NCBI RefSeq assembly: GCF_963921235.1
Contig: NC_086108.1
Location: 57,972,001 to 58,036,000, forward strand
Origin: Mobula hypostoma
Lineage: Eukaryota
DNA: 64,000 bases
Direction of reading: 5' to 3'
The translations under genes and the position numbers were made by a program. The notes under the pieces are model-generated. The model had not been told where the DNA came from. It did no database searches and worked only from the letters and a program-made list of their open reading frames with translations. Positions within the stretch are counted from its first letter, which is position 1. Every line of letters begins with the position of its first letter. Positions 12,867 to 62,372 of the stretch are shown here, in pieces.

Positions 12867-14376
12867 TTGACGTTGCGGTGTTTGCCGAGCTTGGCAATTA
12901 GCTTGCAGATGTTTCATCACGAGTCGAGGTGACATCCTCAATGTGCTGTTGTTGGTGTTTCTCTCTGGGAGTGCTCACATTTATATAGGTCCCCGTTCGC
13001 TTGTCTCGGTCCTGATTGGCTACCACTTCAGCTGACCTTTAAATTCCATTGGCTCACATTTCTTTGGCTCTTGGGGGTTTATAGATGGCGTCTATTTCGA
13101 CATGTTTGCTTGCAGAGTTATCAGAAGAGAGCCACGCTTCAAAAAATTCTCATGCTTGCTTGTGTTTGCCTACGTCAGAATATCTGTGGTGTCCTTCTTG
13201 GTCTTCATGTACCTAGATCAGCAGCAGTGGATCGTGTCTGCGTACCGCCAGTTTGTGTTCCCGTAATCAAGTTGAGAGTTTACATCCTGTCTGGCGATGT
13301 AGTTCTTGGTGCAGTCTCTGCAGGTGATCCAATACACTACATATTCAAACAAAATGAAATCAAGGTTACCTTTAACTAAGTCAAAAACGTATTCAGTGAC
13401 ACCAAATTTACAATGGAAAGAGAAAGAAGCAACCGACTGGCATTTCTGGGTGTACTTGTCGCGAGAAGGACAGACAGTATATTAGGGGCATCCGTCTACT
13501 GGTCCAAGTATTGAGCTACAGTAGCAACCACCCAGCCTGCCACAAGTCACGCCTTATTTAAGAGAGAACAAACGCACTGCAGCACCTCCGAACTTCAGAC
13601 CAGGAAAGAGAAGCACTTATTCAAAGTGCTCCAGAATAACAGTTACCCATGGAATTTCATCAGGAGATGAAAAAGAAGAAAAAGTCGCACAAACCTTACT
13701 CAAGGCACATTGAAATGTGCAACCTTGTCCTATATCAAGCATATCTCAGAAATGACAGCTTGACTGCTCGAACCTCACGGCATCACAATCGCTCACAAAC
13801 CAAGGGCGACTTTAAGGAAGCTTGTCTCAAGAACCAAGGTACCAGTAAGGACAACCAACAAAAGTAATGTGGTGCACAGAATCACCTGCGGAGACTGTAA
13901 CAAGAACTATGTTGCCAGACAGGATGTAAACTCTCAACCGATTTAGGGGAACACAAAGTGGCAGTACGGAGACATGATCCACTGTCGCTGATCTTGGTAC
14001 ATGAAGACTGAGAAGGACACCATTTTAACCAGGATACTGGGAAGGATCTGGCACAAGCAAATGAAGCAGGTTGGAGAATTTTTAGAAGCATGGTTCTTAT
14101 CTGATAATTCTGTAGACAAACATATCATAATAGATGCCACCTAGGAACCCCTTAGAGCCAAAGAAACGCAAGATAATAGAGATTGAAGGTCAACTGAAGG
14201 GGTAGCCAATCAGAACTGAGGCAAGTGAATGGAGGCCTATGTGAACATGAACCCTTCCAGAGAGAAACACCAACAACTGCGCACTGAGGGCGTCACCTCA
14301 ACTGGTGATGAAACATCTGCAAGCTAATTGTCAACCTCGGCAATCCCCTCAACCTGAGCTACCAATATTCACCAAC
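12867..14376 (+). mobile_element. Penelope/Poseidon-type PLE, 5'-truncated, with inverted 5' arm
   Basis: 13329-14376 has decayed RT thumb (FTME..LAFLGVLV) and GIY-YIG (ITCGDCNKNYV.RTG) coding sequence with no Cys-rich linker. 12867-13328 is a reverse-complement copy of ~13881-14355. HHR-like motifs lie at both outer ends. Confidence 0.8.
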
Positions 14377-14716
14377 ATCCCAGACCAATAGAACTGTATA
14401 GAACACTGTTTAATATTAATATCATAAACAGGTATGAGCATCCTAGCAAGAAGATTTTTTAAAATTGATTTTCAACTTTAAAATGTGGATTGATGATCTG
14501 GTGTGACTCCGAAAAAATAATAAATTTACTACAAATTCCGTTATTACAGAAGGACGTAAAATCTGTCTTCCTTTGCATCTCACTGGGTACAACCCAAATC
14601 AATCATGTGTGGTTTCGTTTTTATAACATTTCTTTATGTGGTTGTGAATTTGTGGAAAAGGAGAAAATTAAGTGGATAACAGGAGAGACAGGAATGTGGC
14701 AGATAAAAGCGAAGCA

Positions 14717-14872
14717 GACCTGCAAGGATATTCAGCAGCGTGGAGATGAAGGGGACCTGCAAGGATCTCAGCAGTGTGAAGATGAAGGGGACCTGCAAGG
14801 ATCTCAGCAGCGTGGAGATGAAGGGGACCTGAAAGGATCTCAGCAGCGTGGAGATGAAGGGGACCTGAAAGG
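14717..14872. repeat. 36-bp minisatellite, ~4.3 copies
   Basis: Unit gacctgcaaggatctcagcagcgtggagatgaaggg repeated in tandem. Confidence 0.9.
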
Positions 14873-15529
14873 GTGATGACCCAGAGGACCCTGCAGGGTA
14901 AACGAGAAACAGGGATAGACAGAGCAAAGGGGCAACTAACCAAGACGTGCAACAGTAATCGGTCAGGAGCAGGACTGTTGGAACTGAATGGTAACATGCG
15001 GAGAGTATGCAGACCTGGCAGGGTCATTTTAAATACCAAAATTTTGAGAGTAAGTTAGCTTACATATTTTGGGAAGCCTCATTAGGAGGCAAGACAGAAC
15101 TGAAATGCCAGTTATTTCACAAACAGAAATGTGATCCACCCATGGCAAACAAAAATAATCATGTATAGAACTAGGTAGATTAAAAAAGGAATCAAATAAA
15201 GTTGTTAGGTAATCTAAAATTGATTGAAAATTGATTGATAGACAAAAAACAAAGAGTAGTTCTAAATGGATCCTGATTTCTGTGGGAACAAAGGTACTGT
15301 ATCAGTGCTGAAGCTCCAGCTGTTTAACAGTGATCTGGAGGAAGGAACTAAATGTGAGATTTCTAAATTTGCTCTTGGCACAAGGCTTGGGACTGGGCAG
15401 AATGCAAAGGAACTTTGAGGCAATTTGGGTAAGCAGAGTACATGGAGACAAAAGTAGGCAAAGATGAGGTATAATGTAGATAACTATGCAGTTATGCACT
15501 TACTAAGGAAAAAAGAAGGCTGAAATGTT

Positions 15530-17508
15530 AATGAATGTGCGGAATTGGTGACAGACCACTTAGTAAAGTGCATTGAGAGTGTTACCGTGATTAAACACTA
15601 CACTCTCAGGGCAAACCGGAAACCATGGCTGACAGCTGAAGTTCATGTACTGCTTAAGGGTCAGGACATTGCCTTCAGATCAGGGGACAGGATGACTGTA
15701 AGGACAGCAAGAGTCACCAGGAGGGCAAAGTGTGAGTATGCACGGGAAATTTGCAAACACCTTTGTGATACCAGGGACACGCAGAGCATATGGCAAGGTA
15801 TACAAATCATGACTGATTACAAGTCCACCCTGCTCATGATGACAACGATGTCGCCCTTCCTGACAGGCTGAATGCTTTCTATGTGCAATTGACCAATGGA
15901 ATGATGTGACATTGAGAAAGGCCACCTCTCTTCCTGAAGAGCAGGCGCCCTGTCAGGCTGCAGTGGAGGTGGGGAGGACTCTCGCCAGGGTAAATCCATG
16001 CAAAGCTGAAGGGCCAGACAATATACCCAGTCAGTGCTGAGGGACTGTGCGGCCCAGCTAACAAAATTCTTAATGGATATCTTTAATATCTCTCTGAAGC
16101 AATTCACTGTCTCTCCAGGCTTCAAGGCAGTCACCATCATTCCGGTGCCCAAGAGAGCGATGGTAACTGGCCTAAACGATTGCTGCCCAGTGTCACTGAC
16201 CTCAACAGTTATAAAGTACTTTGAGCATCTGGTAATGGATCTTATGAAATTCTACCTTCCAGCTACATGAGGTCTTTTCCAGTTTGCCTATTCAAACCGG
16301 TCCACTGATGATGCCATAGCCTCAGCCCTCCACCCCAGCCTGTGCCACTTATAAAGCAATGCCTCATACACTAGGATGTTGCTCATCGACTTCAGCTCAA
16401 CATTTAACCCTCAGAGGGTGGTGGGTTAACTGTCCTCGTTGGGACTCAACACCCTTCACTGTAACTGGGTTATTAGTAGAAGTCCCCAGTCTGTCCGAGT
16501 TGGCAGCAACATCTCAACTTCATCACACTGAGCGTTGGTCTGTTGTGTTCACATTGCTGACTCAGGACTGCACTGCCAGATTCAGCTCAGACAGGAGCGT
16601 CAGCAAGTTCACTGATGATACTACAGTGGTCGGCTTCATCAGCAACAATGAGTGGGCACACAGAGGAGGCAGAGAGGCCTGACAAATGGTCAAGAACAAA
16701 AGAGATGATTGTAGCCTTCAGGAAGGCACGGGTTGACCACTTTCCTTTGCACATCAATGGCTCTGCCATGGAGAGAGTGAAGAGCACAAAGTTCATTGGT
16801 GTGCACATGGTGGATGATCTAACCTGGACCCACAACACCTCCTCACCAGTCAAGAAGGCAACAGCAGTGTCTATGCTTTCTGAGGAATTTGAGGTGTACA
16901 AGGCTCCCCGTCCCCATTCTAACACCTTTCTACAGGAGCACCATCGAGAGTGCCCTGTCTGGCTGCATCACCGTGTGGTACAGAAGCTGCAAAGCATCAG
17001 ACCACAAGACCCTGCAGAGGATAGTAAACTCCGCCGAGAAGATCATCAAGGTCTCTCTCCACACACCACCTCCCCACTCCAATTTATGACATTTACTGGG
17101 AAGGGTGTAGACGAAGGGCTCAAAGCATTTGTTGAGGATCCCTACCACCTATTCGATAATCTCTTTGAGCCATTACCATCAGGAAGGAGGTACAGAAGCT
17201 CTAGGACTGCCAGACTGGGTAACAGCTTCATTCCTCAGGCTGTGAGGTTGATGAATACCCTGCCACTTCTGAGGTCTTGTCACTAGGATAGCAAGCTGTT
17301 CACTGTTTACCCATGCTGTGCTTTACATTTTGTAAAATTGTGATTTTGCATTTTGAAGTATATTTTTATTAACTTATATATACATAGTATAAGATTTTAG
17401 TTTATCTGCTGTGTGTGATATATGTTGTGTGGGTGCACTGTGGTCTGGAGAAACGTTGTTTCATTTGGTTGTATATATGTACAGTCAGACAATAATAAAC
17501 TTGAACTT
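15530..17508 (+). mobile_element. Rex1/Babar LINE (decayed RT)
   Basis: Peptides NRKPWLTAEV, LRDCAAQL..IFNISL, KFTDDTTVVG and PLPSGRRYRS; 3' end aataaacttgaactt. Confidence 0.85.
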
Positions 17509-17539
17509 AGGATAAGTGATCTGGAAGCCCATATTATAC

Positions 17540-18430
17540 TGAAATAAAGCATACAGCAAGCTGCTATGAAGATGAATGGTGTGTTGGCCTCCTTTGCAAA
17601 AGTTTTGAAAACAGAAGTGATGTAAGACTTTGGTGAGACCTTTGTGGACTATTATATGAAATTCCAGTTAAAAATCCCTCCCCTCCCCTTTTCTTCTATT
17701 CCCCACTCTGGCCTCTTACTCTTCTCACCTGCCTATCACCTCCCCCTGGATGCCCCTCCTCCTTCTCTTTCTCCCGTGGTCCACTCTCCTCTCCTTTCAA
17801 ATTCCTTTCTTTCCAGCACTTTACCTTTCCCAACCACCTGGCTTTCTCTATCACCTTCTGGCTTTCCTTCTTCCCCTCCCCCAATATTTTTATTCTGACA
17901 TCTTCCTCCTTTTCCAGTCCTGAAGAAGGGTCTCGGCCCGAAATGTCAACTGTTTATTCATTTCTTGACCTGCTGAGTTCCTCCAGCATTTTGTGTGTGG
18001 TGGTATGAAATTTTGGTCTCCTTTGCCAACAAAGGATATATTTAGAACAAAGGCTTCATAGAAGGAATGCAACAAATTCACAGGCATGGTAGGATTGTCA
18101 GATGAGGAGAGATTGGGTCAACTGGATTTGTATTCACTGGAGTTTTGAAGAATGTGAAAAGAACATAATTTTGACAAGGTTCAACAGGTTCAATTTTCCC
18201 TGACTGAGGATTCTGGAATCAGTTGTCTTAGGATACAGGGTGAAATGTTTAGGCTTGAGATGAGAAATTAGTTCACTCAGTTGGTGAAAAACCTGTGTAA
18301 TTCTATTCTACAAAAACTGAAAGACAATTTGGTGTATATATATTCAAGGAGGCGGTAGATTTCCAGACCAAAAGGCATTAAGAGGTATGGGGGATCCACC
18401 ACAATCATATTATCTGGCAGAACAGGCTAG
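17540..18430 (+). mobile_element. CR1 3' fragment (old), host of a PLE insertion
   Basis: aagactttggtgagacc..gactatt | tttggtctcc..gaggagagattgg; CR1 ORF2 end. Confidence 0.6.
17664..18003 (+). mobile_element. PLE 3' end with minimal hammerhead ribozyme
   Basis: 9-bp TSD tatgaaatt (17655-17663, 18004-18012). HHR cagtc-ctgaaga-agggtctcggccc-gaaatgtc-aactg at 17915-17952. Confidence 0.8.
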
Positions 18431-20695: not shown

Positions 20696-20699
20696 ATCT

Positions 20700-21770: not shown

Positions 21771-22191
21771 TATTGTTGATTATCCTCACTCACCAGCTAC
21801 TCTTCTGATCTTAATATACTTGTAGAATCTTACAGGATCTTCCTTTGCCTTGTCTGCCAGTGAAGTCTTATGGCACTTTTTGCCTTCCTAATTTCCTTCC
21901 TATGTCTCTTATTCTCCTCAGGGGACTCATTCAATCCCAGCTGCCTGTGCTTGACATACACCTAATCTTTCCTGACCAGATGCTTAATATCCTTTGTGAA
22001 TCACAGTTCCTTACTCTTGCTGGCCTTGCCCTTCACACTAACAGGCACATTCTGTCCTTCAACATGCAAACAGTCTCTCCTATTCTACTTTTTTTTTTGC
22101 AAATTTCTGTTTGATGACGACAAAATTAGACTTCCGCTAATTTAGGACTCAGAAGTATGGTCCCTGAACCAAAATAGGCCCACTGACACAT

Positions 22192-23493
22192 CACATACAG
22201 GAGAGAATCTGCAGGTGCTGGAAATCCAAGCAACACGAGCACAAAGTGCTGGAGGAACTCAGCAGGCGAGGCAGCATCTATAGAAAAGAGTACAGTCAGT
22301 GTTTCAGGCCGAGACCCTTCATCGGGACTGCAAAATATAGATGAGGAGTCAGAGTAAGAATGTGGAGGGAGGGGAGGAAGAAATAAAAGGTAGTAGGTGA
22401 CAGGTGAAACTGGGAAGGGGGAGAAGTGAAGTAAGGGGCTGGGAAATTGATTGGTGAAAGAGAAAAAAGGCTGGGGAAAGGGGAATCTGATAGGAGAGGA
22501 CAGAGAGCCATGGAGGGAAAAGGGGGAGGAGCACCAGAGGGAGGGAGGTGACGGGCAGGTAAGGAGATAAGGTGAAAGGGAAATGGAGGTGGGGAATGGT
22601 GAAGGGGGAGAGGTGCATTACCAGAAGTTTGAGAAATTGATATTCGTGCCATCAGGTTGGAGGCTATCCAGATGGAACTTAAAGAGTTGCCCCTCCAACC
22701 TGAGTGTGGTCTCATTGTGACAGTGGAGGAGGCCATGGACTGACATGTCAGAATGGGAATGGAAAGTGGAATTAAAATGGGTGGCCACTGGCAGATCCCG
22801 CTTTTTCTGACAGAGCGTAGGTGCTCGGCAAAGTGGTCTCCCAGTCTGCATCAGGAATCACCGATAGACAGCAGGCCATACCAGGAGTGCTGGATGCAGC
22901 AAATGGCCTCAAAGAGACTCACAGGTGAAGTGTCACCTCACCTGGAAGGACTGTTTGGGGCTGTGAGTGGTGGTGAGGGAAGAGGTAAAGGGGCAAGTGC
23001 AGCACTTGTTCTGGTTGCAAGGATAAGTGTCAGGAGGGAGATGAGTGGGGAGGGACGAATGGAGAAGGGAGTCACATTGGGACTCCACTTCCCATTCCAA
23101 CATGTCAGTCCATGGCCTCCTCTACTGTTGTGATGAGGCCACACTCTGGTTGGAGGACAGCAGAGCTCCTTACCTGCCATTCACCTCCCTTCCTCTCCCT
23201 TTCTCCCCCTTTTCTTTCCTTCTGTCCTCTCCTATCGGATTTCTCCTTCTCCAGCCCTGTACCTCTTTCACCGATCAATTTCCCAGCTCTTTACTTTACT
23301 CCTCCCCTCCCCTTCCCAGTCCACCTATCACCTACAACCTCGTACTTCTTCTTCCCCTCCCTCCACTTTCCTACTCTGAGTCCTCATCTTGTTTTCCAGT
23401 CCTGATGAAGGGTCTCGGCCTGAAACATTGACTGTACTTTTTTCCATAGATGTTGCCTGGTCGGCTGAGTTCCTCCAACATTTTGTATGTCTT
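22192..23493 (-). mobile_element. Neptune-type PLE fold-back insertion
   Basis: Minus arm 22192-~23075 (tail, HHR 22293-22330, GIY-YIG). Plus arm ~23080-23493 (HHR 23397-23434). TSD gcccactgacacat at 22178-22191 and 23494-23507. Confidence 0.85.
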
Positions 23494-23594
23494 GCCCACT
23501 GACACATAAACCACTTGCCCAGTCTTATTTCCAAAGAAGAGATTAAGCGTGACCCCTTTCCTGCAGGGAAACTACATACTTATTTAGAAGAGCC

Positions 23595-31600: not shown

Positions 31601-32154
31601 CAGGAGGAGGCAGAGCGAAACGCCAGGGCCGTCTCAATGGCCAAGCAGGGCCAATGGACTAATTGGGAGAGCCTGGAAAAGAGGAAACTTAGCTGGCGTG
31701 ACATCTGGGAGATGGAAGGATCTCGGCGAAGTTTTGTTATCAGAGCCACTTATGACCTCCTACCCACACCCCAGAACCTGAATCAGTGGTGGGGAGAAGA
31801 CCCCGCTTGCTTTCTTTGTCAAGCACCTGCATCACGAAGGCACATTTTAACAGAATGCACCACAAGCCTCACCCAGGGGCTGTACACTTGGCGGCATAAG
31901 CAAGTTCTCAGACAACTGGCATCAGTCTTGGAACAGAGGTGAATCACCACAAATGCTCTCCCACAAACATCGGCAGGAAATGTCCACATTACACAATCTG
32001 TACCAGCAGGCCAACCTCCAGAGCACCATATGACATCAAAAGATGTAAGCATTCTGCAGACAACAGGAATTCTGCAGATGCTGGAAATTCAAGCAACACA
32101 CATAAAAGTTGCTGGTGAACGCAGCAGGCCAGGCAGCATCTCTAGGAAGAGGTG

Positions 32155-32192
32155 CAGTCGACGTTTCAGGCCGAGACCCTTCGTCAGGACTA
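32155..32192 (-). ncRNA. Minimal type I hammerhead ribozyme (PLE), mirror copy
   Basis: Exact reverse complement of 33547-33584. Confidence 0.85.
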
Positions 32193-33546
32193 ACTGAAGG
32201 AAGAGTGAGTAAGGGATTTGAAAGTTGGAGGGGGAGGGGGAGATCCAAAATGATAGGAGAAGACAGGAGGGGGAGGGATGGAGCCAAGAGCTGGACAGGT
32301 GATAGGCAAAAGGGATACGAGAGGATCATGGGACAGGAGGTCTGGGAAGAAAGACAAGGAGGGGGGAAGACCCAGAGGATGGGCAAAGGGTATATTCAGA
32401 GGGACAGAGGGAGAAAAAGGAGAGTGAGAGAAAGAATGTGTGTATAAAAATAAGTAACAGATGGGGTCTGAGGGGGAGGTGGGGCATTAGCGGAAGTTAG
32501 AGAAGTCGATGTTCATGCCATCAGGTTGGAGGCTACCCAGACGGAATATAAGGTATTGTTCCTCCAACCTGAGTGTGGCTTCATCTTTACAGTAGAGGAG
32601 GCCGTGGATAGACATGTCAGAATGGGAATGGGATGTGGAATTAAAATGTGTGGCCACTAAGAGATCTTGCTTTCTCTGGCGGACAGAGCGTAGGTGTTCA
32701 GCAAAGCGGTCTCCCAGTCTGAGTCGGGTCTCGCCAATATATAAAAGGCCACATCGGGAGCACCGGACGCAGTATATCACCCCAGCCGACTCACAGGTGA
32801 AGTGTTGCCTCACCTGGAAGGGCTGTTTGGGGCCCTGAATGGTGGTAAGAGAGGAAGTGTAAGGGCATGTGTAACACTTGTTCCGCTTACACGGATAACC
32901 ATTCAGGGCCCCAAACAGTCCTTCCAGGTGAGGCAACACTTCACCTGTGAGTCGGCTGGGGTGATATACTGCGTCCGGTGCTCCCGATGTGGCCTTTTAT
33001 ATATTGGCGAGACCCGACGCAGACTGGGAGACCGCTTTGCTGAACATCTACGCTCTGTCCGCCAGAGAAAGCAGGATCTCCCAGTGGCCACACATTTTAA
33101 TTCCACATCCCATTCCCATTCTGACATGTCTATCCACGGCCTCCTCTACTGTAAAGATGAAGCCACACTCAGGTTGGAGGAACAACACCTTATATTCCGT
33201 CTGGGTAGCCTCCAACCTGATGGCATGAACATCGACTTCTCTAACTTCCGCTAATGCCCCACCTCCCCCTCAGACCCCAACTGTTACTTATTTTTATACA
33301 CACATTCTTTCTCTCACTCTCCTTTTTCTCCCTCTGTCCCTCTGAATACACCCCTTGCCCATCCTCTGGGTCCCCCCCCCCCCGTCTTTCTTCCCGGACC
33401 TCCTGTCCCATGATCCTCTCGTATCCCTTTTGCCTATTACCTGTCCAGCTCTTGGCTCTATCCCTCCCCCTCCTGTCTTCTCCTATCATTTTGGATCTCC
33501 CCCTCCCCCTCCAACTTTCAAATCCCTTACTCACTCTTCCTTCAGT

Positions 33547-33584
33547 TAGTCCTGACGAAGGGTCTCGGCCTGAAACGTCGACTG
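33547..33584 (+). ncRNA. Minimal type I hammerhead ribozyme (PLE)
   Basis: Stem I tagtc/gactg, core CUGACGA, stem II (a)ggg-tctcgg-cct, GAAAC-GUC with a palindromic ACGU in place of stem III. Predicted cut after C33579. Confidence 0.85.
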
Positions 33585-34439
33585 CACCTCTTCCTAGAGA
33601 TGCTGCCTGGCCTGCTGCGTTCACCAGCAACTTTTATGTGTGTTGCAAGCATTCTGCAGGTTGCTTGGGATTGAAAAATGGACGTAGACTTGGGAAAAAA
33701 AGCTTGTGTTTCCTCCAGACATTGCGGCTACAACATTCCGGCCAGACATAGTCCAAGCTGGCATATGTTGAGGAATTGACAGTACCATGGGAAGATAGTA
33801 TCAAAGAAGCTTATGAGAGGAAAAAGACCAAGTAATCTGAACTGGCAACTGAAGCTGCCCAGAATGGCTGGAAGACCAAGATTTTCCCTGTAGAAGTGGG
33901 ATGCAGGGGATTCGTTGCTACATCTACAACCAGTTTATTGAAGAAGATGGGGGTGAGGGGTCACTCCCTCCAACAAGCAATCAAGTCCTTGTCAAATGCA
34001 GCAGAAGAAAACAGCAATTGGATTTGGATTAAAAGGAAAGACAACAATTGGGCTGCAAGATGAAGACAGGAGGGTATGGAACTGAGGGGGGTGTATCTGG
34101 GACGCCAGGTAGCACCGTTGAGCCCTTTGGAGACGTCGTGGGCTTATCAACGGAACATCAAAGAAGGAGGGTGCCCACCTGATGACCCCGATGACGTACC
34201 TACCCTCCCTCCTTGTCACCACTCCAAGCCCACTGCCAAAATCGAGAGTGCCGACTTACCATAGGGATTGAAACATCAAGTCCTAGTAGTTCTACTGCTC
34301 TACTATTTCATTGCCAGGTGTTGTATTCTATTGAAATGCCAGATGAATTTTACTGGTACTTAAAGCAAAGACTCTTCTCATTAAATTAAGCGTTGTTGCT
34401 TCAGTGTTACTTCAGTATTCCAATTCACAGTAGGTGGCA

Positions 34440-35314: not shown

Positions 35315-35520
35315 CTATGCTCCCCCCTCCCTCCACCTATCACCTGCCAGTTTTTGCTTCACATCTTCCCTCCTCCTTTTTAGACTGGTTTTCGTCACTC
35401 CAGATGAAGGGTCTTGATCAATTATCCATTTCTCTGCATAGATGCTGCCTGAACCACTGGGTTCTGTCAGCATTTTGTGTATTGCTCTAGATTCCGGCAT
35501 CTGCAGTCCCTTGTGTCTCC
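35315..35520 (+). mobile_element. Degenerate PLE 3' end
   Basis: cagatgaagggtcttga (decayed HHR), catagatgctgcctga and tail ccggcatctgcagt. Confidence 0.65.
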
Positions 35521-36050: not shown

Positions 36051-37826
36051 CACCTACATCCGGGATACATCCCATGCCCTCCACCTCTTCAATAACTTCC
36101 AGTTCCCCGGTCCCAATCGCTTCATTTTCACCATGTATGTCCAATCCCTATACACCTCCATTCCCTATCAAGAAGGCCTCAAAGCGCTCCGCTACTTTCT
36201 GGATAATAGACCTCACCAGCTCCCCACCACCACTACCCTCCTCCGGTTGGCGGAACTGGTTCTCACACTCAATAACTTCTCTTTTGGCTCTTCCCACTTT
36301 CTTCAGACTAAGGGTGTAGCTATGGGAACTCACGTGGGCCCTAGCTATGCCTGCCTCTTCGTTGGTTATGTGGAACAGTCTGTGCTCCAAACCTATTCTG
36401 GTACTGCTTCCCAACTTTTCCTTCGGTACGTTGACGACTACATTGGTGCTGCTTCCTGCACCCATGCTGAGCTCGTCATTTTCATTGACTTTTCTTCTAA
36501 CTTCCACCCAGCCCTCAAATTCACTTGGTCTATCTCAGACACTTCTCTCCCCTTTCTCGATCTCTCGGTCTCCATCTCTGGAGACAGACTGCCCACTGAC
36601 ATCTTCTACAAGCCCACTGACTCTCATAACTACCTCGACTATACCTCTTCCCACCCCACCACATACAAAAATGCCATTCCCTATTCCCAGTTCCTCTGCA
36701 TCCTCTGCTCCGAGGATGAGGTTTTCCGTTCCAGGACATCTCAAATGTCCTCTTTCTTTAAGGATCATGGTCTCCTTTCTGCTGTCATTAATGATGCCCT
36801 CACCTGCATCTCCTCCATTTCCCACACTTCGGCCCTCACCTCATCCTCCCACCACCACAACAGGGACAGAGTTCCCCTTGTCCTCACCTACCACCCCACC
36901 AGCCTCCGGATCCAGCACATTATCCTCCACAACTTCCGCCACCTTCAACAGGACCCCACCACAAAGCACATCTTTCCCTCTCCACCCTTCTTTGCTTTCC
37001 ACAGGGATCAGTCCCTCCACGACTTCCTGATCTACACGTCCCTCCCCATGGATCTCCCACCCGGCACTTATCCCTGTAAGCGCAAGTGCTACACCTCCTC
37101 TCTTGCCACCATTCAGGGCCCCAACCAGTCCTTCCAAGTGAGGCAACACTTCACTTGTGAGTCTGTTGGGGTCATCTATTGCATCCGGTGCTCCCGGTGC
37201 GGCCTCCTCTACATCAGTGAAACCCGACGCAGATTGGGGGACTGCTTCGTCGAGCACCTCCGCTCTGTCTGCCACAACAGACAGGATCTCCCAGTAGCCA
37301 CCCACTTCAACTCTGCTTCCCACTCCCATTCAAATATGTCCATACATGGCCTCCTCTACTGCCATGATGAGGCTAAACTCAGGTTGGAGGAGCAACACCT
37401 CATATACCGTCTAGGTAGTCTCCAGCCCCTTGGTATGAACATAGAGTTCTCCAACTTCCGGTAATTCCCTCCCCCTCCCTTCCTCTATCCCCATGTCACT
37501 CTGCCACCCCCCCCCCAGCTGCCTATCACCTCCCTCATTGTTCCGCCTCCTTCTACTACCCATTGTGTTTTCCCCTATTCCTTCTTCACCTTTCCTGCCT
37601 ATCACCTCCCTGTTTCCCCTCCCCCACCCCTTTATCTTTCCCCTCACTGGTTTTTCACCTGGAACCTACCAGCCTTCTCCCTCCCACCCTCCCCCCATCT
37701 TCTTTATAGGGCCTCTGCCCCTTCCCTCTACAGTCCTGTTGAAGGGTTCCGGCCCGAAACGTTGATTGATCCTTTCCACGGATGCTGCCTGACCTGCTGA
37801 GTTCCTCCGGCGTGTTGTGAATGTTG
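36051..37826 (+). mobile_element. Neptune-type Penelope-like element, 5'-truncated (RT + GIY-YIG + HHR)
   Basis: Open frame to 37464: YVQSLYTSIP (motif-A Asp replaced by Tyr), GVAMGT, LRYVDD, LPFLD, YKPTDSHNYL, YPCKRKCY linker, GIY-YIG. HHR with mutated core (ctgttga) at 37731-37768. The ORF-track start at 35941 is borrowed from antisense CR1. Confidence 0.92.
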
Positions 37827-38530
37827 TTTCTATTCTGAGGTTGTGTCCATTGACCTTAGACTCTCCCACCATAGGAATCATTCTCTCCACATCCGCTCTA
37901 TCGAGGCTTTTCAATATTCGATAAGTTTCAATGAGATCCCCAACTCATTCTTCTGAATTCCTTTGGACACTCTTGAATTGTTAGCACATCCTTTCTTACA
38001 TAAGGTGTGCAATACTGCTCACAATATTCCAAGTGAGGCCTCACCAGGTGCCTTATAAAATCCTAACATTACAACCTTGCTTTTATATTCTAGTCCTCTC
38101 AAAATGAATGCCAACATTACATTTGCCTTCCTCACCACTGACTCAACCTGCAAATTAACCTTCAGGGAATCCTGCACAAGGACTCCTAAGTCCCTTTACA
38201 CCTCAGATTTTTTTGTATTTTCTCTCCATTTAGAAAACAGTCTGCACTTTCATTTCTTCTCCCAAAGTGCATGACCATACACTTCCTGAGCTATATTTCA
38301 TCAGCCACTTCTTTGCCCATTCTCCTGATCTAAATCCCGTTGTAGCTTCTTTGCTTCCTCAATACTACCTGCCCCTCCACCTACCTTCATATTGTTTGCA
38401 AATTTTGTGACAAATCCATCAATTCCATCATCCATTTTATTAACATATAATGTAAAAAGAAGTGGCCAGACACGGACCCCTGTGGAACACCACTAGTCAC
38501 TGGAAACCAACCAGAAAAGGCTCCCTTTAT

Positions 38531-39066
38531 AAGCAAGGGAAAACCTGAAGATGCTGGAAATCCAAGCAACATACACAAAATGCTGGAGGAACTCGGCAGG
38601 CCAGGCAGCATCTATGGAAAAGAGTACAGTCGACGTTTTGTGCCAAGACCCCTTATCAGGACTGGGAAAAGAGATTAACAGCCAGAGTAAGAAAGTGAGG
38701 GGGGGGGGTGATAGGTGAAACCGGAAAGTGGGGGAGAGGGTAAAGTAAAGGGCTGGAAAGTTGATTGGTAAAAGAGATATAAGGGCAGAAGAAGGGGGAA
38801 TCTGGTAGGAGAGGACAGAAGGCCATGGAAGAAAGAAAATGGAGAGGAGCACCAGAGGGAGGTGACAGGCAGATAAGGAGATAATATGAGAGGCAGAAAT
38901 AGGAATGGGGAATGGTAAAGGAGAGGTGGGGGGGCATTACCAGAAGTTCAAGAAATCGATGTTCATGCCATCAGGTTGGAGGCTACCCAGGCGGAATACA
39001 AGGTGTTGCCCCTCCAAACCGAGTGTGGCCTCATCATGACAGTAGATAAGGCCATGGCCTGACATG
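38531..39066 (-). mobile_element. PLE 3' end with tail and decayed HHR
   Basis: 9-bp TSD tccctttat (38522-38530, 39067-39075); HHR-like motif at 38627-38664. Confidence 0.8.
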
Positions 39067-43899: not shown

Positions 43900-46580
43900 T
43901 CTAAGGCATTGATTTGTGGCATTGATTGGTGTTTTAAAAGAGGCCAATCACCGATCAGCATTGATTGGCAAGAAAAAGTGAAAAGAGGACCGTGGCAAGT
44001 AGAGCGGCTATTGTTGAAGTGCACAGTGTTAGAGTGGGGAATCTGAGGGTTTAGCTCTTTGAGGTTTCAGCAAGATGAGGCTTAAGTGACAGAAGGTGAA
44101 AGGCCGTAGGAATATTTTTCTCCATGGTTTATTTATTGTTGTCCTTCTTTAAACGTCAACTGTACCTCTTCCTATAGATGCTGCCTGGCCTGCTGTGTTC
44201 ACCAGCATCTTTTGTGTGTGTTGCTTGAAATTCCAGCATCTGCAGATTTCCTCATGTATGAGGGAGGAGTTGGCCAGAATTGATTGGAAAAGAACTCTGG
44301 CAGGGAGGATGGCAGAGCAACAACAGCTGGAATTGCTGGAAACAATTTGGAATGCATAGGATATACAGTATATATCCCAAAGAGGAAGAAGTATTCTAAA
44401 GGAAAGATGACACAACCATAGCTAACAAGAGAAGTCAAAGTGCACATAAAAGCCAAAGAGAGTGCATGTAATAGAGGAAAGATTAGTGGCAAGTTAGAGG
44501 ATTGAGAAGCTTTCAAATACCAACAGAAGACAACTAAAAAAGTCATTAAAAAGGTAAAAATGGAATACTCAAGTAAGCTAACCTATAGTTTTAAAGAGAA
44601 TATGAAAAGTTTATTCATATACATAAAGTGTAAAAGAGAGGTGAGATTGGATGTTGGACCACTGGAAGACAATGCTGGAGAGGTAGTAATGGGTTACAAT
44701 GAAATAGCATATGAGCTGAATAAGTATTTTGTATGAGTCTTCGCTATGGAAGATACTCAAAGTATGATGGAGGTTCCAGGTGTCAGGAAGCATGTAGTGC
44801 GTGGTTACCATAATTAGAGAGGAGGTTCTTGGGAAACTGAAAGGTCTGAAGGTAGATAAGTCACCTGAACCAGGTGGAGTACACTCCAGAGTTCTGAATG
44901 AGGTGGCTGAAGAGATCATGAAGGCATTAGTAATGATCTTTCAAGAATCACTAGATTCTTGAATGGTTCCAGAAGACTGGAAAATTACAAGTGTCACTCC
45001 ACTCTTCAAGAAGGGAAACTATAGGCCAGTTAGTATGACCTCAGTGGTTGGGACGATGTTGGATTCAATTATTAAGGATGAGGTCTCAGGATCCTTGGAG
45101 GCATGCGACAAAATAGGCCATAGTCAACATAGTTTCCTCAAGGGAAAAACTTGCCTGACAAATCTGTTAGAATTCTTTGATGAAGTAACAAGCAGGATAG
45201 ACAAAGGAGAATCAGTTGGTGTGTAATTGGATTTTCAGAAGGCGTTTGACCAAGTGCCACACATGAGGCTGCTTAACAAGATATATACCCATGGTATTAC
45301 AAGAAAGATTCTAGCATGAGTAAAGCAATGGTTGGTTGACAGGAGGCAAAGAGTGGGAATAAAGGGAGCTTTTCCAACTGGCTGCCAGTGACTAGACGTG
45401 TTCCACAGGGGTTTGTGTTGGGACTGATTCTTCTTTGGTTATTTGTCAATGATTTGGATAATGGAATAGATGGCTTTGTTGCAAAATTTGTAGTTGATAT
45501 GGAAATAACTGGAGGGGCAGGTAGTTTTGAGGAAGTAGCGAGGCTACAGAAGGACTTAGACAGAATAGGAGAAAAGACAAAAAATGGCAAGTGGAATACA
45601 ATATCAGGAAATATGCGGTCATGCACTTTGTTAGAAGAAATGAAAGGCTTGATTATTTTCAAAATGGAGAGAAAATACAAAAAACTGAGATGCAAAGGGA
45701 TTTGGGAGTTCTTGTGCAGGATTCCCGAAAGGTTAACTTGTACGTTGAATTTGTGGTGAGGAAGGCAAATGTGATGTTACCATTCATTTCAGTAGGACTA
45801 GAATATAAAAGCAAGGATGTAATGTTGAAACTTTATAAAGCACTGGTGAGGCCTCACTTGGAGTATTTGGGCCCCTTATCTGAGAAAGGATGTGCTGAAA
45901 CTGGAGCGAGTTCAAAGGAGGTTCACAAAAATGATTCCAGGATTGAATGGCTTGTCAATTGAAGAGCATCTGATGGCTCTGGGCCTGTATTCGCTAGAAT
46001 TCAAAAGAATGAGAGGTAACCTCATTGAAACCTGTCGAATGATCAAAGGCCTTGATAGAGTGGATGTGGGGAGGATGTTTCCTATGGTGGGAGAATCTAA
46101 GACCAGAGGACACAGCCTCAGAATAGAAGGGTGTCCATTTAGAATAGAGATGAGGAGGAATTTCTTTAGCCAAAGAGTGGTGAATCTATGGAATTCTTTG
46201 CCACAGGCAGCTGCAGAGGTCAAGTCTTTATGTATATTTAAAACTGAGGTTGATAGATATTGTGTGCAGTTTAAGTCACCTACCTACAGGAAAGATGTAA
46301 ATAAGGTTGAAAGAGTACAGAGAAAATTTACAAGGATGTTACTGGGACTGGAGGACTTGAGTTAAAAGGAAAGATTGAATTGGATAGGACTTTATTCCTC
46401 GGAGTGTGAAAGATTGAGGGGAGATTTGATAGATGTATACAAAGTAATGGGGGATGTAGGTGGGGTGTATGCCAACATGATCTGGGTGCAGGTTGATGGG
46501 AGTAGGCAGTTTAAATGGTTTAGAACAGACTACGTGGGCTGAAGGGCCTGCTTCTTTGCTGTACTTTTCTGTGCCTCTAA
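43900..46580 (+). mobile_element. CR1 copy: 5' UTR joined via a PLE tail (44150-44256) to ORF2, plus a second CR1 3' end (46258-46580)
   Basis: Peptides VPEDWKITSVTPLFKKG, VPQGFVLG, LYKALVRPHLEY and FFSQRVVNLWNSLP. Confidence 0.82.
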
Positions 46581-48544
46581 GGCAGTGTGGTATCATCTTT
46601 ACTGTTGTTGTCTATATGTGAAAGTTTTCTTTCTGCACATCATAGTTTTGATGCATCTGGATAGCTTGCAAGATGGTTAGAAGACTTGAGAGCTAACCAC
46701 CTGTCTGTCAGTCTAAAGTTACATGTAGCCCAGAGAGGCTTGGGGTGTTTGATGTGAACCTTGTAACTAGGTGATCATTTAATGATGCTACAAATTCAGT
46801 ACTGTAAGTTTCTGGTTAAGTACACAATATTGACTAATTTTAATATTTAATTCTACTTCTTGGGGATAATTTTTTAGGCAAATTGAAATCCTTCTTGAAA
46901 GGCCTCAAGTGAACCAGATGGCGATTTAAAGAAATTCTTAATAGTTTTGCAGTTACCATGTCTGTTACTAGTTTTGAATTTCAATTCTACAAAATTAAAC
47001 AATTTTTTTACTTATCATAGTAGATTTCAATTAGAAATCTACTAATATAACCCCTATGTTAAGATGTACCAAAATGAAAGCTATTTTCTTTTTGGTAGGG
47101 TAACTCTTTGGCTCCCTTTGGATGTTTTTGGAAAACCAAACTTTTCTTGTGCACTGTCCCATCAATATCTTACATTATCTCCTTAGCCTAGTCTAAGGGC
47201 ACTGGATGACAGATGTCATATGTCATACAGTTGACACTTCATCTTTTTTTTCTCAAAATGAACAAGAAATGGAGAGAATTGCTCATAGGCAGCTTGTTGT
47301 ACAACCGGTTGTAAAATGGGATAAAATTAGGAATTGGCAGGTGTTAAGGAAGAAAAGGCAAAGGTGAACAACAAAACTACAAAGGTTTCATTACATACAG
47401 GAAATAACTGCTACTTCCTACTTTGAACTGCAGATGTTTTTTTCATACTGATGTAATAAACTGAAAGTAAAGGAAACATAGAAAATTGAACGTTTGCATC
47501 ATTATGACGTATTCCCAGATTTAAATGTCTCAACATCCAAATGAATGGATGTTTCCTTGTACCTTTGAAAATGACAGCAGAAATTGGGCAGCTACTTAAG
47601 TTGGTAAGGGTGTGTTATTATAGACCTTTACTAGATTTTCAGCTTCTTTCTGCTCAAGTTGTAGCTCAAAATTACAAACGTTTGTAGAAGTATATTTGCA
47701 TACGTAGGCCCTTCACTCCTGAAAAATATTCTTCTTCCCAGGACTGGGTAATATAGACATAATCAGCAGAATGGCTGTTTTCTGTGATGTAATTTGCATT
47801 GATGTTTTAAGTGATTCTGAACAAAGCATGCCCTACATGTATTGAGAACATGTCTGTAAATTATCTTAGTTGCTTGGCTTGCACAAGTATGGCTGAGTTA
47901 TTTTCTCCAATCTGATTTCAGAGCAATGACTCATTCCACCTGACATCTAAGTAGTCTGGAGCTCAAATATGGGAGTATAGCTTAAAGCTGAGTTAAACAC
48001 AGATGTGTTTCTCCTGATTTTGTGTAGAAATCAATATGATCAGATGATCAAACCAAATAAATTAAGATTAAAGTAAAACAGGTCCTTGGCTTTAATCCAA
48101 GAAAATTTACATTACTTCATAATAGACCTCAATTATCCACCTTGATTTTTTATTCCTTGAATATTCAAGGTTTTCTGTGTGGAATTTGCAGTAAGGCAGG
48201 ATTAAAATGGTGTGCTAAGCGAACAGAGCACAGAGCTTTTTATGTGTGGATGTTCACTGAGGCAACATTCAAGATTGTAAAATGAGAGAAGCAGTGTGCA
48301 GACATAGTGCAGTCACCCAGGCTGAACATGGTGCATGAAGGGTTAACTCTAGTACAGCTTTTCTGTTCAAGTCTAGAGCAAAGGCCACCAAGCATACCAA
48401 GACAAGACAAAAATGCAAATGAAGGATTCTGGGGCAACTCTTATTACTGAACAGTTATCTTACTAATACTTAAGAATTATTGACCTTCAACTCATAGATT
48501 TTATTACTTATTAATACCTGAAACATGTATTATGATTGATAAAA

Positions 48545-48662
48545 CGTACCGTCGACATTTCAGCCTGAAACGTCAACTGTACTTTTTTCCATAGATGCTG
48601 CCTGGCCTGCTGAGTTCCTCCAGCATTTTGTGTGTGTTGCTCGGATTTCCAGCATATGCGGA
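48545..48662 (+). mobile_element. Short PLE 3' terminus (half HHR plus tail)
   Basis: gcctgaaacgtcaactg..catagatgctgcctggcctgctgagttcctccagc..gatttccagcat. Confidence 0.7.
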
Positions 48663-48974
48663 TAGGTACTTGAATATGCAAATGATGGGATTCAGCAGTG
48701 CACTAGGTTTCTATTAGATCAATATACAGTATGTGTCTAACTGGTCAACTTCTGTATAAAAATGACATTTCTTTGTTAAGACTTCAGAGTGTTTTGGTGA
48801 CAAGTAAATAAAGTGTGATTGAAGAACGAGAGCAAGTAGTCAGATTCTGGTATTATGCCAATACAAAAAACAGATTTGTGCTAATCTAAAGCCATTATTA
48901 AGTAAGAAAGGAATACAATTTGAGTGTTTCATGCTTTTCCAAGTAGGAAAATACTGCTATTGATAGTCTCTCGG

Positions 48975-55580: not shown

Positions 55581-56344
55581 CAACTGCAATGATTCCGCAA
55601 CACACCATCTCACTCATCCCTCGATCCTGCCTCACCCCTTCATTGTTTGTTGCAATAATTTATCACAATTTACCTCAGATAAGGTATTTTAGTGATATTT
55701 TAGTTGGATTTCTTAGCTTTATGACTACCAGAAAGCTGTCACACACATTCAGTAACGTCGTCTTAACCGGAAATGTTTGACCTGAAATGCTAACCCTGTT
55801 TCTTTTTCCACAAATGCTGCCTGATCTGTTTAGAGTTTCTAGCAGTTTCTGATTTTATTATATGAACATACAAGTAATATTTTCTTTTACAAGATCGGTA
55901 CAGTGTTAATTCCATTAATAGAGTCATATATGCATGTCTCTGTGGCAGATAGTCTGATGAGAACAACGTCAAATTGTTTTTTACTTTCCCAGTGCACACT
56001 GAACTTACAGTTTGATAGGTATGTGCTTCAGGACTTGCCTGACTCAACCAATATTGGTACTAAGAAATGCTCTTCATAATATTGTAGTTTCCTTCCCAAA
56101 GTCAATTTAACAGGATGTAGTCAGCCTTAAATTAGTGGAGGGTGGATACAGACAAAATTGGCAGAGAATTAATTGAAAAAATTTATCAAACCTTAGTTGT
56201 GATTAATTGTTTGTGTATCAAATCTTAATTGTTTATATAAATGCTATTATGAGTTCAGGATGTTATCTAGCCATATTGATTCGTTAAAATTTTGACCTTA
56301 ATTCAAATGTATTAGTGATGGTGCAAAAAATTCTATTAATTTAG

Positions 56345-56419: not shown

Positions 56420-58054
56420 GTAAGAATCTGTAAAGCAGTATCAGAATTCTCTTACCTTACTATTTCATTACTTACTGCATGTTGCTTGGTTAATTGACTC
56501 CGTTTTCCTCTCTGAAGGATTGTTTTTCCAGAAAGCTTTCTTCACCTAAACGGGTGAACCTAGTCTTCACCTGGTCGCAAACTTATAAACTCCTTTGCCC
56601 CCGAGAAGGGTATCCTAGGTCCCTAAATTCACAATTCTTCAAGAGAGAAAGAAATTGTCTTATTTCTCTCCTTTTTATACAAGTGTACTTGGTTCTAGAG
56701 TCTCCCACTAGAGTAGGGGCCCCTGATCTTTTTTATGCCATGGAGCCTTACCATTAACAGATGTGTCCATGAACACCAGATTGGGAATGCCTTCACTAGA
56801 GGAAACACCCACGTCACATCCACTGTACCCAGACTCCCCAGGATCTAATATTTTTCAATCAACTCTTTCCTTATTTTCAAAATAAGTGTCAGCATTCTGC
56901 CTGTTTCTGAAAAAGCATAAGTGAAAATAACTGAAATGATTATTTAATTTCTTTAATAGTTGTATGCATTTGGAAATGACAGAAGATTATATGTCATTGC
57001 CTTACTAATAGTATTGGCAGAGAAGATTAGCCATTTTCAACATGAACAAAAATCAGTACAGTAAATTTCATAACAAAAATGTACAAAATATACAGAAAAC
57101 ATTTTTCATAATGTACCTTCATTGTATACTTAAATGTTAATACAACATTTTATTGCTTAATGTTTCATCAAAAATAAAGTACCAATATTTTCTATTTGAG
57201 TTTCCATACCAATATGAGCAGTTAATTTAATTCCATTTATCCATGAATTAATATATTTTGCACATAACTCTGCAGACTAGTTTTCCCAGAAATCTATTCA
57301 TCTTCTTAGTTATCTCCTTCTGTCTTCGAATTTGTTCAGCATTATTCTGTTGAATAATGTATAATGTACAAAACACAAGTAAATGGGGCTAATGACATTG
57401 CTCTGCTAGAAACTGGTAAGGACATAAGGGGAATCGAAGTGAAGATTTTGGAAACAACATGAGAAATTTAATACAAACACACGTCTGTGAACTTTCATTG
57501 AAATTATCCTGTAAGTGTTTAAGACAAAAATATATTTGGCCAAAGCGGCATTGGTTATTGGGTGTCTCAATGTTTGTCCCTTTACTTTTTAAATTTGTGT
57601 TCAAACCCAGAGCAGTTTACTTAGATAAAAGCTCACTTCTTTCTACAAAATAAAATTCAACTGTCTCAATCTAGTTCCAAACTAACTTTCTGTCCACAGC
57701 AAACTGAATTTGCTTTGTCATTGTCACTGAGAGAAAACACAAGGTTGATTATTGTCCAAAAGGAAAACAATACACCCGTTCACCCAAATGATGCAAGAGA
57801 CTGCAAATACTGGAATTTAGAGCCAAAGAAAGAGCTGCTGTCAGAACTAGGTGGAGTCAAGCATCATCTACTGAGGGAAATAGATAGTTGACATGTTGGA
57901 TCTAGAACTATTATCTGGATTGAAAGAATAGATGGAAAACATCTGGTGTAAAATGCAAGAGGAGGGCTGACAAATGTTAGCTGGATCCAGGTGAAGAAGT
58001 TTTGATTGCCAGATGAAGTCAGGTGGGATTGAGAACAGAGAGTTTTATATCGAC

Positions 58055-59329: not shown

Positions 59330-60240
59330 TTTACAGAAATGGGCTCTTCAATATACTCTGTACATATGAATCATCAGAAATCTATCTGTACTTACTCATC
59401 TGCCCGTAACCTTTAATGCCATTGTGATTTAAGTTATAATCTCCTACCTCCTCTAACCCCTTGAGCAGTTTTGTACATAATCCAACTACCCTCTGGCTGA
59501 AAAATTCCTCTTAAAATATTCTCTAAACTTCTTGCTCCTTACCCTAAAACTATGCCTTCTAGTTTTAGACACCTCTGCTATGGTGAAATGGTTTCTACTG
59601 TCTACCCTATCTATGCCCCTCTTAATTTTGTATGTCATCACCAGGTCCCTCCCTCAGCCTCCTCTCCTCCAAGGAAAATAGATCTAGCCTATCTAGTCTT
59701 TAGTCATAAACTGAAACGCTCTATACTCGTGTTTCTTCTCTTGACTTTCCCAGTGTAATCGCATCTTTCCCCCATGCAGTGACCAGAGTGGTGCACGGTA
59801 ACAGGTGTGGCCTAACCAATGTCTTATAAACTTTAACTCCCCATCCTTACATTCTATATTACGGCTAATGAAGGCAAGTGTACTTGTTTTTCTCACCACC
59901 TTATTTGTCTGTGCTGTTGAATTCAATACGCCCTGGAGCCCTGCTATTCATTGCTGATGTCCTAGCCTTATTAATCTTCCCAAAGTGCATTTCCTCACAT
60001 GTATCAAACTGCATTGCGCTGCCCATCTAACCACTGACTATTCTCATACTGTACTCCAAACCTAGGGTCCTAGTTATAAACAACATTTTTCTGTCATCCG
60101 TGAATTTAGCAATCCTAGCTCCTCCATTGGTATCCAAATTGTTGTGACAAAAGGGAAAGGCTACCACTTGTCACAGGTTTCTAATTACATTAAAACCCAT
60201 CATCCCCTGCATCTTATCACAAAATCAATTTGGATCCAAT
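59330..60240 (-). mobile_element. Old CR1 3' fragment
   Basis: Minus-strand peptide TLAFISRNIECK; ctaatgaaggcaag. Confidence 0.55.
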
Positions 60241-61428
60241 TGTATTTGATCCCAGTAAAAGGCTTACATTTTCAAATTTAATTATCATTCAACCATACAT
60301 GAATATAGCCAAACGAAACATTGTTCCTCTGGAGCCAAGGTGCAAAACAGATTACCAACAGCACACAGCACACAGCACACTGCACATAGCACATAGCCCA
60401 AAAAGCACATGGTTACTATTTCAGAAAAACATACAGTCACAAAGAAAAAAATATAGCTCAATTCCTTGAGTGGCATGACTATAGATTTTCCTGGTCCAGC
60501 TTGTTCTTCCACTGAGCAAACACTGGAGGGCAGCACTGACTGCAAGGGTCAGCCCCCAACCCGCTACAGTTATGTGCACACCCAATAGAGGCCCTGCTGT
60601 CTCCCACACTGCCTCATTTCTACTCCCATGGACAACTACAACAGGCAACACTGTGGCCTAGGCGTAGTCCTCACCACAAATGAGGCAACTCAGCTTCGCT
60701 GCTGTCATTCTCACCAGTGAACCAGACTTGCAGTGTTCTATATTACCAATATCAAACTGGATCTTGTGATCACAATGAAAATGTCCACATCAATCCCTCG
60801 CTCCATTTGATAGATTACACACAACAGTATGCAACATGTCCAGCTCCATCGCTATCGAGCAACTCACTGATGGGATAGTCCTGTAATGCTTGATGTTCTT
60901 AGTATCCAGCAGTGACTTTTAATTGTGAAAAAGACGTACAAGATGAACAAATACACCTTCAATTGGACCCGGAATGGCCATTGCATCCAAGCGTGCCACC
61001 ATCTTACTGAACTCCCTGTAAATGTTATTACCCTCAGTACCCTCATTTGTTTTAAGAGATTTTGTTGTGTCCTCAAAAAATTGAGTCAAGTTTGTCAAGC
61101 CAGATGACCTGCAACTAAGCCATGCGACTACCATTGAATCACCTCTGCCCACTGGGCCACAACCTCTTAAGCACCACTACTACCATCATGGCTGCCCATT
61201 CCACGCAACTATCACTCTATTGGAAAAAAACTTGCCATGGACATTTTCCCTCAGTTTGCTTTCCTCTAATACTTAACATTTACAGTGTACCCTGGGGAAT
61301 AAAGATTCTGCTTATCTCCCCTATCAGTGCCTTTCAAAAGTTTATAAACTATCAGGTCTCTGTTCAGCCACTCCAGAGAAAACAAAGATTTTCTGACCTC
61401 TCCTCTGTTCATATCACTCTAATCCAGA

Positions 61429-61582
61429 GCAACACTCACAACACGCTGGAAGACCTCCCCCCACCTTCTTTATAGGGCCTCTGCCCCTTCCCTCTTCAGT
61501 CCTGATGAAGGGTTCCGGCCGGAAACGTCAGCGTGTTATGAGTGTTGCTTTGACCCCCGCATCTGCAGAGTGTTTTGTGTTT
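61429..61582 (+). mobile_element. Miniature PLE fold-back insertion (154 bp)
   Basis: TSD actctaa(t/c)ccaga (61416-61428, 61583-61595). A ~25-nt inverted arm gcaacactcacaacacgctgg is followed by a plus arm with the HHR core and tail. Confidence 0.82.
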
Positions 61583-62334
61583 ACTCTAACCCAGACATTC
61601 TTCTAACCCCCTTCCTCACCCTTTTCAAAGCCTCTCCCTCCTTCCTTTAATAGGATAACCAGAGTTGCACAAAATGATCTCAAGTGCAGCAAAACCACAA
61701 TTTCATATAGCTGCAACACTACTTCCTTAATTATGTACTCTATACCCCAAACAATGAAGACAAGCATGGATTTGCCTTCTTTCCCTCCCTAGCTAATTCT
61801 GTGGCCACTGTCAGTGAGCTATAGATCGCTCTGCCCATCAATGCTGTTAAGGCTGCTACCATTAACAATGATTTCCTCTTACATTTGACATTATACTTGC
61901 TTGGATTGAACTCTACCTGACATTTTCTTTGCTCATGTTTATAAAAATCTACATCACAGTTCTAGCAATCTCCTCTTTAGCCTCCTATATACCCCTTGGA
62001 TATATACCACCAGACTAGTGAGGATTTAGACACCTGTAAATCTGCTAATACCCACCCCTAATACCTCCTTTGGCAGTTTGTTCCAGGTGCTCACCACTGT
62101 GTGGAAAAACCTGTCCCTCAGGACCCTTTTATATCAAATCATCTGAAGTTATACCTGTCCCTTCCAGTTTTACATTCCCTGATGTGGGAACAAGGACTGT
62201 GATGATCTACCCTACTGATGCCCCTTGTGATTTTATGAACTTCCATAAGGTCAGCCCTTAGGCTCCGTCGCCACAGGGAAACAGTCCTAGTCAATCCAGT
62301 CTCTTCTTTTAACTTAAGCTCTCTAGTCCCAGCA

Positions 62335-62372
<38 letters not shown>

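Follow-up and report, generated by a model that had tools for sequence, protein, structure and literature searches.

Paired 3' end positions in two-armed Penelope-like element insertions from a Mobula hypostoma window and outside loci: a candidate twin-priming footprint

According to the accessible text of two papers, the insertion signature of Penelope-like elements (PLEs) comprises an inverted arm and a 30–40-nt tail at one or either end (PMC8557442; PMC3846280). In rotifers, the tail was placed on one inverted pseudo-long terminal repeat, the target site duplications (TSDs) were 8–10 bp, and self-priming was proposed (PMC3846280). The origin of the inverted arms and the tail was called undefined in the corresponding passages of PMC8557442. 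For endonuclease-bearing (EN+) PLEs, nuclease resolution is given as the origin of the tail, and self-priming as that of the inversion, in the accessible sections of Craig et al. (2021, PMC8557442) and Arkhipova et al. (2013, PMC3846280), which contain no counts. Here, we analyzed a 64,000-nt stretch of the Mobula hypostoma genome (NC_086108.1, positions 57,972,001 to 58,036,000; hereafter the window) with four two-armed PLE insertions (A–D), together with PLE copies from outside loci. Compared with the TSDs and tails given in those sections, the TSDs here are longer (12–14 bp), as are the tails of the outside Neptune families (50–57 nt).

Two described systems come closest. For PAc, the Poseidon element of Anolis carolinensis, cutting and extension of both target strands were demonstrated in vitro (Frangieh et al. 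2024, PMC11167929). The same study showed two internal start sites of the reverse transcriptase (RT), which bound the tail, and predicted a dimer; its main text is silent on how the sites pair in a single insertion and on where inverted arms come from. In L1 twin priming, as outlined in the accessible part of Meyer et al. (2010, PMC2837659), cDNA synthesis runs in opposite directions from two target 3' ends and yields a TSD-bounded inversion with microhomology at the inner joint. The internal position of the second L1 primer, however, varies, and L1 arms do not overlap, whereas here the starts are fixed 33–57 nt apart and the arms usually overlap. L1-type twin priming proper was rejected, because the ends are fixed and the arms overlap in all copies except L214; the process resembles twin priming in its working, but not in the form known from L1. 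A pairing of two start sites between target strands was not found stated in the literature searched, older subscription papers excepted; this literature included the accessible parts of PMC4209133, PMC8969392, and bioRxiv 10.64898/2026.07.22.740005. One-of-each pairing is a testable mechanistic refinement on known elements. If the start sites are paired across the target strands, the tail and the inversion obtain one explanation, distinct from the two published suggestions as well as from the priming of long interspersed nuclear elements (LINEs), and the existing in vitro system allows a direct test.

End positions and their pairing within insertions

Self-comparison of the window recovered the four outward-facing inverted PLE pairs of the first-pass annotation, one Poseidon-type (A) and three Neptune-type (B–D; Table 1). 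As had been noted there (with tails of ~25–37 nt), the longer arms of B, C, and D were tailed (38, 33, and 34 nt) and their short arms all stopped at TTGC. The TSDs read as 14, 13, and 13 bp, where 12–14, 13, and 13 bp had been claimed; that of B shrinks to 12 bp if the final GC is assigned to the element. The ends of C (+67 and +100) were counted from the hammerhead cut site as predicted by consensus, and its short arm begins 56 nt more 3' than the long arm. Insertion A, the oldest copy, indeed had no readable TSD, and the tail ascribed to it could not be delimited, there being neither a TSD nor a second family copy in the window. Its arm homology (78% identity between the short arm and 13867–14353) stops near 12867–12872 and 14353; the sequence beyond ~14360 is a putative extension.

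When the outside loci were added, exactly one end was tailed in 18 of 18 TSD-bounded two-armed insertions (3 in the window, 15 outside; three families). The earlier suggestion of one position per target strand within an insertion is supported by this count. The maximal repeats flanking these copies had a median of 13 bp (range 9–17, element-sequence overlaps included), and 14 of the 18 measured 12–14 bp.

A first set of outside loci was retrieved with an alignment of the RT query and its homologues: 80 metagenome loci, ranked best among 489, plus nine on genome contigs, all apparently animal host DNA. To lessen length bias, two motif scans were added. The tail-motif scan gave 20 loci, one of which was dropped (contig edge, unrelated record). 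The body-motif scan, blind to the tail, gave 32 loci (31 distinct), whose ends were mapped on L085 as the reference. Inverted repeats lacking PLE sequence or a readable TSD were excluded (L002, L013, L021, L022, L024, L043 tail-to-tail, L045, L055, L064, L069, L086, and others); L045 resembles a DNA transposon with an 8-bp TSD. The contigs of L081–L089 and L166–L217, filed as bacterial metagenome-assembled genomes (MAGs), carry dozens of animal PLE insertions, which amounts to host contamination. DNA motifs of the window had no matches in metagenomes; 75 matches in prokaryote contigs and 1 in viral contigs were taken as chance from their titles, and a search for viral relatives found none.

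In the body-motif set, the 3' ends were bimodal. Twenty-one of the 41 ends lay at +116..123 (one being the reference), 16 at +63..71, and 4 elsewhere, after omission of the duplicate L198, the second copy of the mirror L197, the interrupted arms L210 and L212, a stray 19-nt piece, and internal fragments. The two defined priming positions proposed from the window are supported, and two start sites were shown in vitro (PMC11167929). The predicted bimodality held for 37 of 41 ends, but not its tie to the role of the arm. Both ends were in view in 14 distinct two-armed copies found by the motif scans, and 12 of them paired a tailed with a tail-less end; the body-motif subset gave 9 of 10 such pairs against 49% expected (p = 0.009). 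This pattern bears on a model with two RNA molecules, one per target strand, where a dimer forces complementary registers and cis preference ensures a single source locus. A free choice of start sites would make the ends alike in roughly half of the insertions; we saw none among the 18.

A TSD was readable in 10 of 13 two-armed copies versus 4 of 16 single arms (p = 0.009). The TSDs of the single outside arms measured 8, 9, 13, and 15 bp. Longer TSDs in fold-backs, which had been predicted, are no rule, as single arms have 8–15 bp and the rotifer inverted copies 8–10 bp. Sequencing runs were also mapped on the long arm of C. Two raw-read runs gave 2 and 0 reads. The contig runs were saturated, with 12 of 2,424 ends loose; some of these were stacked at 32065, close to where the tail ends, and none lay at 32093. 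Because loose ends were few and the contig runs saturated, only the depth ratio was used: in two contig sets, the depth of the tail bin was 0.44 and 0.49 times that of the adjoining bin, a crude measure that fits tails on half of the ends.

In two unrelated Neptune-type families, ~67 nt separate the predicted ribozyme cut from the tail-less end downstream of it (C +67, B +66, L085 family +63..71). The tails of these families differ (33 vs 56 nt), and A gives ~+40. The spacing is possibly a ruler, or chance. Folding of the 3' ends gave z-scores of −1.2 to +0.6, and a consensus hairpin had 21 pairs with zero compensatory changes; in the outside family, the +67 site is not at the stem foot. A stem-loop marking the tail-less end is suggestive.

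Source of the two arms and the position of the tail

Fold-back or self-priming (PMC3846280; PMC8557442) would derive both arms from one cDNA or antisense template, which snaps back and copies itself before nuclease resolution leaves the tail at one end. The arms do share private variants, the junctions show palindromes and microhomology, the L075 junction holds a 12-nt snap-back filler, and almost the whole short arm of each of the four window copies recurs in its long arm. Seven outside cases already contradict this route, since a long arm without the tail could not have served as template for a short arm with it. In L008, L025, L067, L075, L200, and L190, a tailed short arm stands next to a tail-less long arm, of which it cannot be a copy. 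In L214 (L082, 2805–4223), the short arm consists of the distal 29 nt of the tail only, within a 13-bp TSD. It is missing from the 1.36-kb tail-less partner arm (best match 16/29), and therefore it is not a fold-back copy. In D, ~9 nt of the short arm are missing from the long arm, which weakly favors two primings on RNA, although the deletion could be later. In addition, zero-loop turns at 4–6-nt palindromes would make poor hairpins, and the tail matches the interval between the two in vitro RT start sites. We regard fold-back as unlikely.

Both arms stem from one source, as indicated by 20 shared variants in 11 pairs with overlapping arms, where 5,000 random re-pairings gave 5.1 on average and at most 15. 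In the simplest reading, this source is probably a single RNA molecule. Two RNAs, as proposed for L1 in the accessible text of PMC2837659, would yield long overlapping arms (748 nt in C) without strand displacement. They would also suit B, whose arms are 80% alike, against 81% and 78% to an independent copy; age, however, accounts for the divergence of B. Together with the missing like ends, the excess of shared variants over random pairing makes two RNAs a still less probable origin than fold-back.

Symmetric turns lie on the 4–6-nt palindromes TCGA, TTCGAA, and TGGCCA, and other turns show short microhomology or filler. The palindromic turns suit annealing of two cDNA ends. Many 5' stops and turns of L166–L217 fall along the 5' edge of the hammerhead (−17 to −48). 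The same TCGA turn occurs in L166 and L177, two distinct insertions.

The first-pass annotation had linked the tail to first-strand priming and the long arm, and the tail-less end to second-strand priming and the short arm, across all clades. The four window copies agree with it (4 of 4, p = 0.0625 by itself), as do the tail-less short PLE arms of L083 and L026 and a 4–7-nt target microhomology at several tail-less ends. Of the 12 motif-found outside copies, 9 had the longer arm tailed when total length was compared, largely since the tail adds 56 nt; by 5' reach, the tailed arm went further in 3 and the tail-less arm in 6, with 3 ties. Where the arms differed by more than 50 nt, the tail-less arm reached further in 7 and the tailed arm in 1 of the outside copies, as opposed to 0 and 4 in the window (p = 0.01). 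Four of the seven were found by the RT search alone, which favors long arms but no end type. The RT-bearing two-armed copies L008 (TSD 16 bp), L025, L067, and L075 (13 bp) carry 50–57-nt tails on the short inverted arm, and the Poseidon-type copy in L082 (181–2260, TSD 12 bp) has a 42-nt tail on the shorter arm. The longer arm is tailed in L026, which has no TSD and stands outside the 18-count. Among copies whose partner end lay out of view, L043, L087, and L181 had a tailed short arm and L083 a tail-less one.

The longest Neptune arm of the window is tail-less as well, and the rule linking tail and long arm across clades is refuted by the criterion set in the annotation itself; in this fish, it may still hold as a lineage bias. 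Both polarities exist. The assignment of first and second strands is not supported either, because lone arms of both kinds carry TSDs (tail-less: 17664, L216, and L207) and target microhomology sits at both tailed and tail-less ends; strand order is not assignable from these data, and microhomology was discarded as its marker. As a general account, the linkage of tail, strand order, and arm length is very improbable.

The twin-priming model and the points weighing on it

We consider it fairly probable that the insertions arise by twin target-primed reverse transcription, in which the two cut strands each use one of two fixed start sites. The GIY-YIG nuclease would cut both strands ~13 nt apart and leave 3' overhangs, as the TSDs suggest; two-strand cleavage was shown in vitro for the anole element (PMC11167929). 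As shown in vitro and in keeping with the bimodal ends, the RT would then start internally at either of two sites that follow the hammerhead and have the tail between them, and the two target ends of one insertion would take different sites, one each. Both cDNAs would copy the same source, most simply one RNA on a protein dimer, with the distal starter displacing the proximal one or stalling behind it. Each cDNA would stop variably, often near the 5' edge of the ribozyme. The cDNA ends would be joined by microhomology, palindromes, or filler, of which the junctions bear the marks, and fill-in would create the TSD, the enzymes of these steps being presumed. Arm length would then reflect where each RT stopped, not strand order, and abortion of one cDNA would leave a single arm with a variable or missing TSD.

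A stronger form, which we put forward only tentatively, makes two primers obligatory for PLE integration: both target ends would be loaded by a dimer on one RNA, in registers 33–57 nt apart, and the RTs would run in convoy, the rear one displacing the cDNA ahead of it or stalling behind it. If so, tail, inverted arm, and TSD would form a single footprint, and single-arm copies would be aborted twins. Lineage differences in displacement would explain the tail on the long arm in this fish and on the short arm in the other family.

Several observations weigh against twin priming on paired start sites. All four window copies fit fold-back copying equally well, D weakly excepted, and overlapping arms of up to 750 nt would require strand displacement. 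In vitro, the choice of start site showed no difference between the top and the bottom strand, and pairing was not scored there (PMC11167929). Three outside copies without a TSD break the pattern: L202 ends at +67 and +78, L001 has both ends at one position (outside the 18-count), and L197 has two tail-less arms, although its host flank is mirrored as well. The 48.5-kb copy of the window, likewise without a TSD, has a short arm that ends ~13 nt past the predicted ribozyme cut. The gap in polarity between the window (4:0 tailed) and the outside copies (1:7; p = 0.01) is another such point. The shared variants could stem from one RNA, from a pair of RNAs transcribed at the same locus, from gene conversion, or from assembly polishing. 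Finally, the outside loci are host DNA in metagenome or MAG assemblies, and 13 of 21 come from two MAGs and one repeat family.

Element identity and further features of the window

RVT_1 was found in 36052–37461 and GIY-YIG in 32745–33254. Among 635 homologues, many carry both RT and GIY-YIG. The closest named relatives of the 470-aa frame (36052–37461) are in rays and sharks, with 81% identity to a Hypanus protein. For A, both domains were listed in 4 of 7 scanned relatives, and two homologue searches with its decayed frame returned no matches. The alignment of the query with 24 of 120 listed homologues (25 sequences in all) shows conservation of VIYCxxCxxCxxLYIGET with downstream histidines, as well as of the Cys linker CX2-5CxxC between RT and nuclease, which reads CKRNKCYTC in C. 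The linker motif is missing from A, its relatives P0122, P0125, and P0153, and the Poseidon-type copy L082 181–2260.

In the accessible text of PMC8557442, the clades are defined by the linker; Nematis also has it, so the linker alone is not Neptune-specific. By these definitions, B, C, D, and the single arms classify as Neptune-type EN+ PLEs, a provisional label based on the linker, and A and L082 181–2260 as Penelope/Poseidon-type by linker absence. B, C, and D each show an inverted 5'-truncated arm, a 30–40-bp tail at one end, and a short TSD. The elements themselves are ordinary and very abundant, and the footprint is already known.

A scan of both strands placed a hammerhead motif (CUGANGA...GAAAC) with stem I in the terminal repeat; the cut site is a consensus placement, and cleavage is predicted. 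Rfam gave no hammerhead match, and its two weak miRNA matches on the C hairpin were rejected as far below gathering scores. The long arm of A also contains a hammerhead-like motif and an AC-rich end. The deletion in the D long arm starts at the predicted hammerhead cut (61529–61530), and the TSD-bounded single arm L179 (match 2474–2596) starts at +1. These two cases are possible traces of in vivo ribozyme cleavage.

Table 1. Penelope-like element features of the window (window coordinates; + positions in remarks are nt from the predicted ribozyme cut)
Feature	Position	Strand	Remarks
A, short inverted arm, Poseidon-type PLE 3' end	12867..13342	-	outer end ± ~5 nt
A, long arm	13343..14376	+	decayed RT thumb and GIY-YIG start, without Cys linker
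B, left TSD copy, 14 bp	22178..22191	+	right copy 23494-23507
B, long arm, Neptune	22192..23083	-	tail 22192-22229, 38 nt
B, short arm, internal deletion	23084..23495	+	stops at TTGC, +66
C, left TSD copy, 13 bp	32047..32059	+	right copy 33647-33659
C, long arm, young Neptune, Cys linker and GIY-YIG	32060..32898	-	tail 32060-32092, 33 nt; end at +100
C, short arm	32899..33646	+	96% identity to long arm; stops at TTGC, +67
D, left TSD copy, 13 bp, 1 mismatch	61416..61428	+	right copy 61583-61595
D, short tail-less arm	61429..61457	-	~9 nt missing from long arm
D, long arm	61455..61582	+	tail 61549-61582, 34 nt; internal deletion from predicted ribozyme cut
Single tail-less Neptune arm	17664..18003	+	9-bp TSD 17655-17663, 18004-18012
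Old single tailed Neptune arm	35320..35520	+	no TSD
Longest Neptune arm, RT to GIY-YIG, 470-aa frame, 1,776 nt	36052..37827	+	tail-less, inside LINE
Single tailed Neptune arm, 35-nt tail	38531..39066	-	9-bp TSD 38522-38530, 39067-39075
Single tailed Neptune stub	44151..44257	+	no TSD
48.5-kb copy, inverted arm, 23 nt	48541..48563	-	ends ~+13, not TTGC
48.5-kb copy, long arm	48565..48663	+	partial tail ~23 nt; no clear TSD
Tail-less Neptune end	62332..64000	-	through expanded (CA)n and tandem array, beyond window edge

For two of the single arms that had been listed, the reported 9-bp TSDs were read around 17664–18003 and 38531–39066. Two entries need revision as single arms. The copy at 48662, with its ~23-nt tail, is two-armed: the overlooked inverted arm matches at 19 of 23 positions, the sole such site among 63,800 positions. 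The element at 62331 leaves the window with its partner side out of view. The longest arm (36052–37827) has no TSD, and its host LINE is continuous across the insertion.

Three older Neptune-type ends had gone unlisted: 57793–57950 (−) is tailed, 55781–55860 (+) is tail-less, and 1673–1990 (+) is ambiguous. Element sequence probably extends into a 9-bp repeat at 57791/57953, which was not accepted as a TSD. The ~55–60-bp units of the tandem array at 62513–64000 derive from the Neptune terminal repeat, namely its purine-rich part, and the array leaves the window.

Outside the window, tRNA-like units of short interspersed nuclear elements (SINEs) stand back-to-back with one 22–46-nt tail and 12–13-bp TSDs (L083 1643–2017; L082 6053–6982; L063 4569–4964). 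They look as if moved by the PLE machinery; a literature search on such units moved by PLEs found no paper.

The window overall is repeat-rich vertebrate DNA. A broken non-LTR retroelement frame of ~3 kb at 28983–31942 (+) has an RT-like region and a C-terminal Cys/His-rich stretch, and it is unlike the surrounding LINEs, which we take to be CR1/L2-like.

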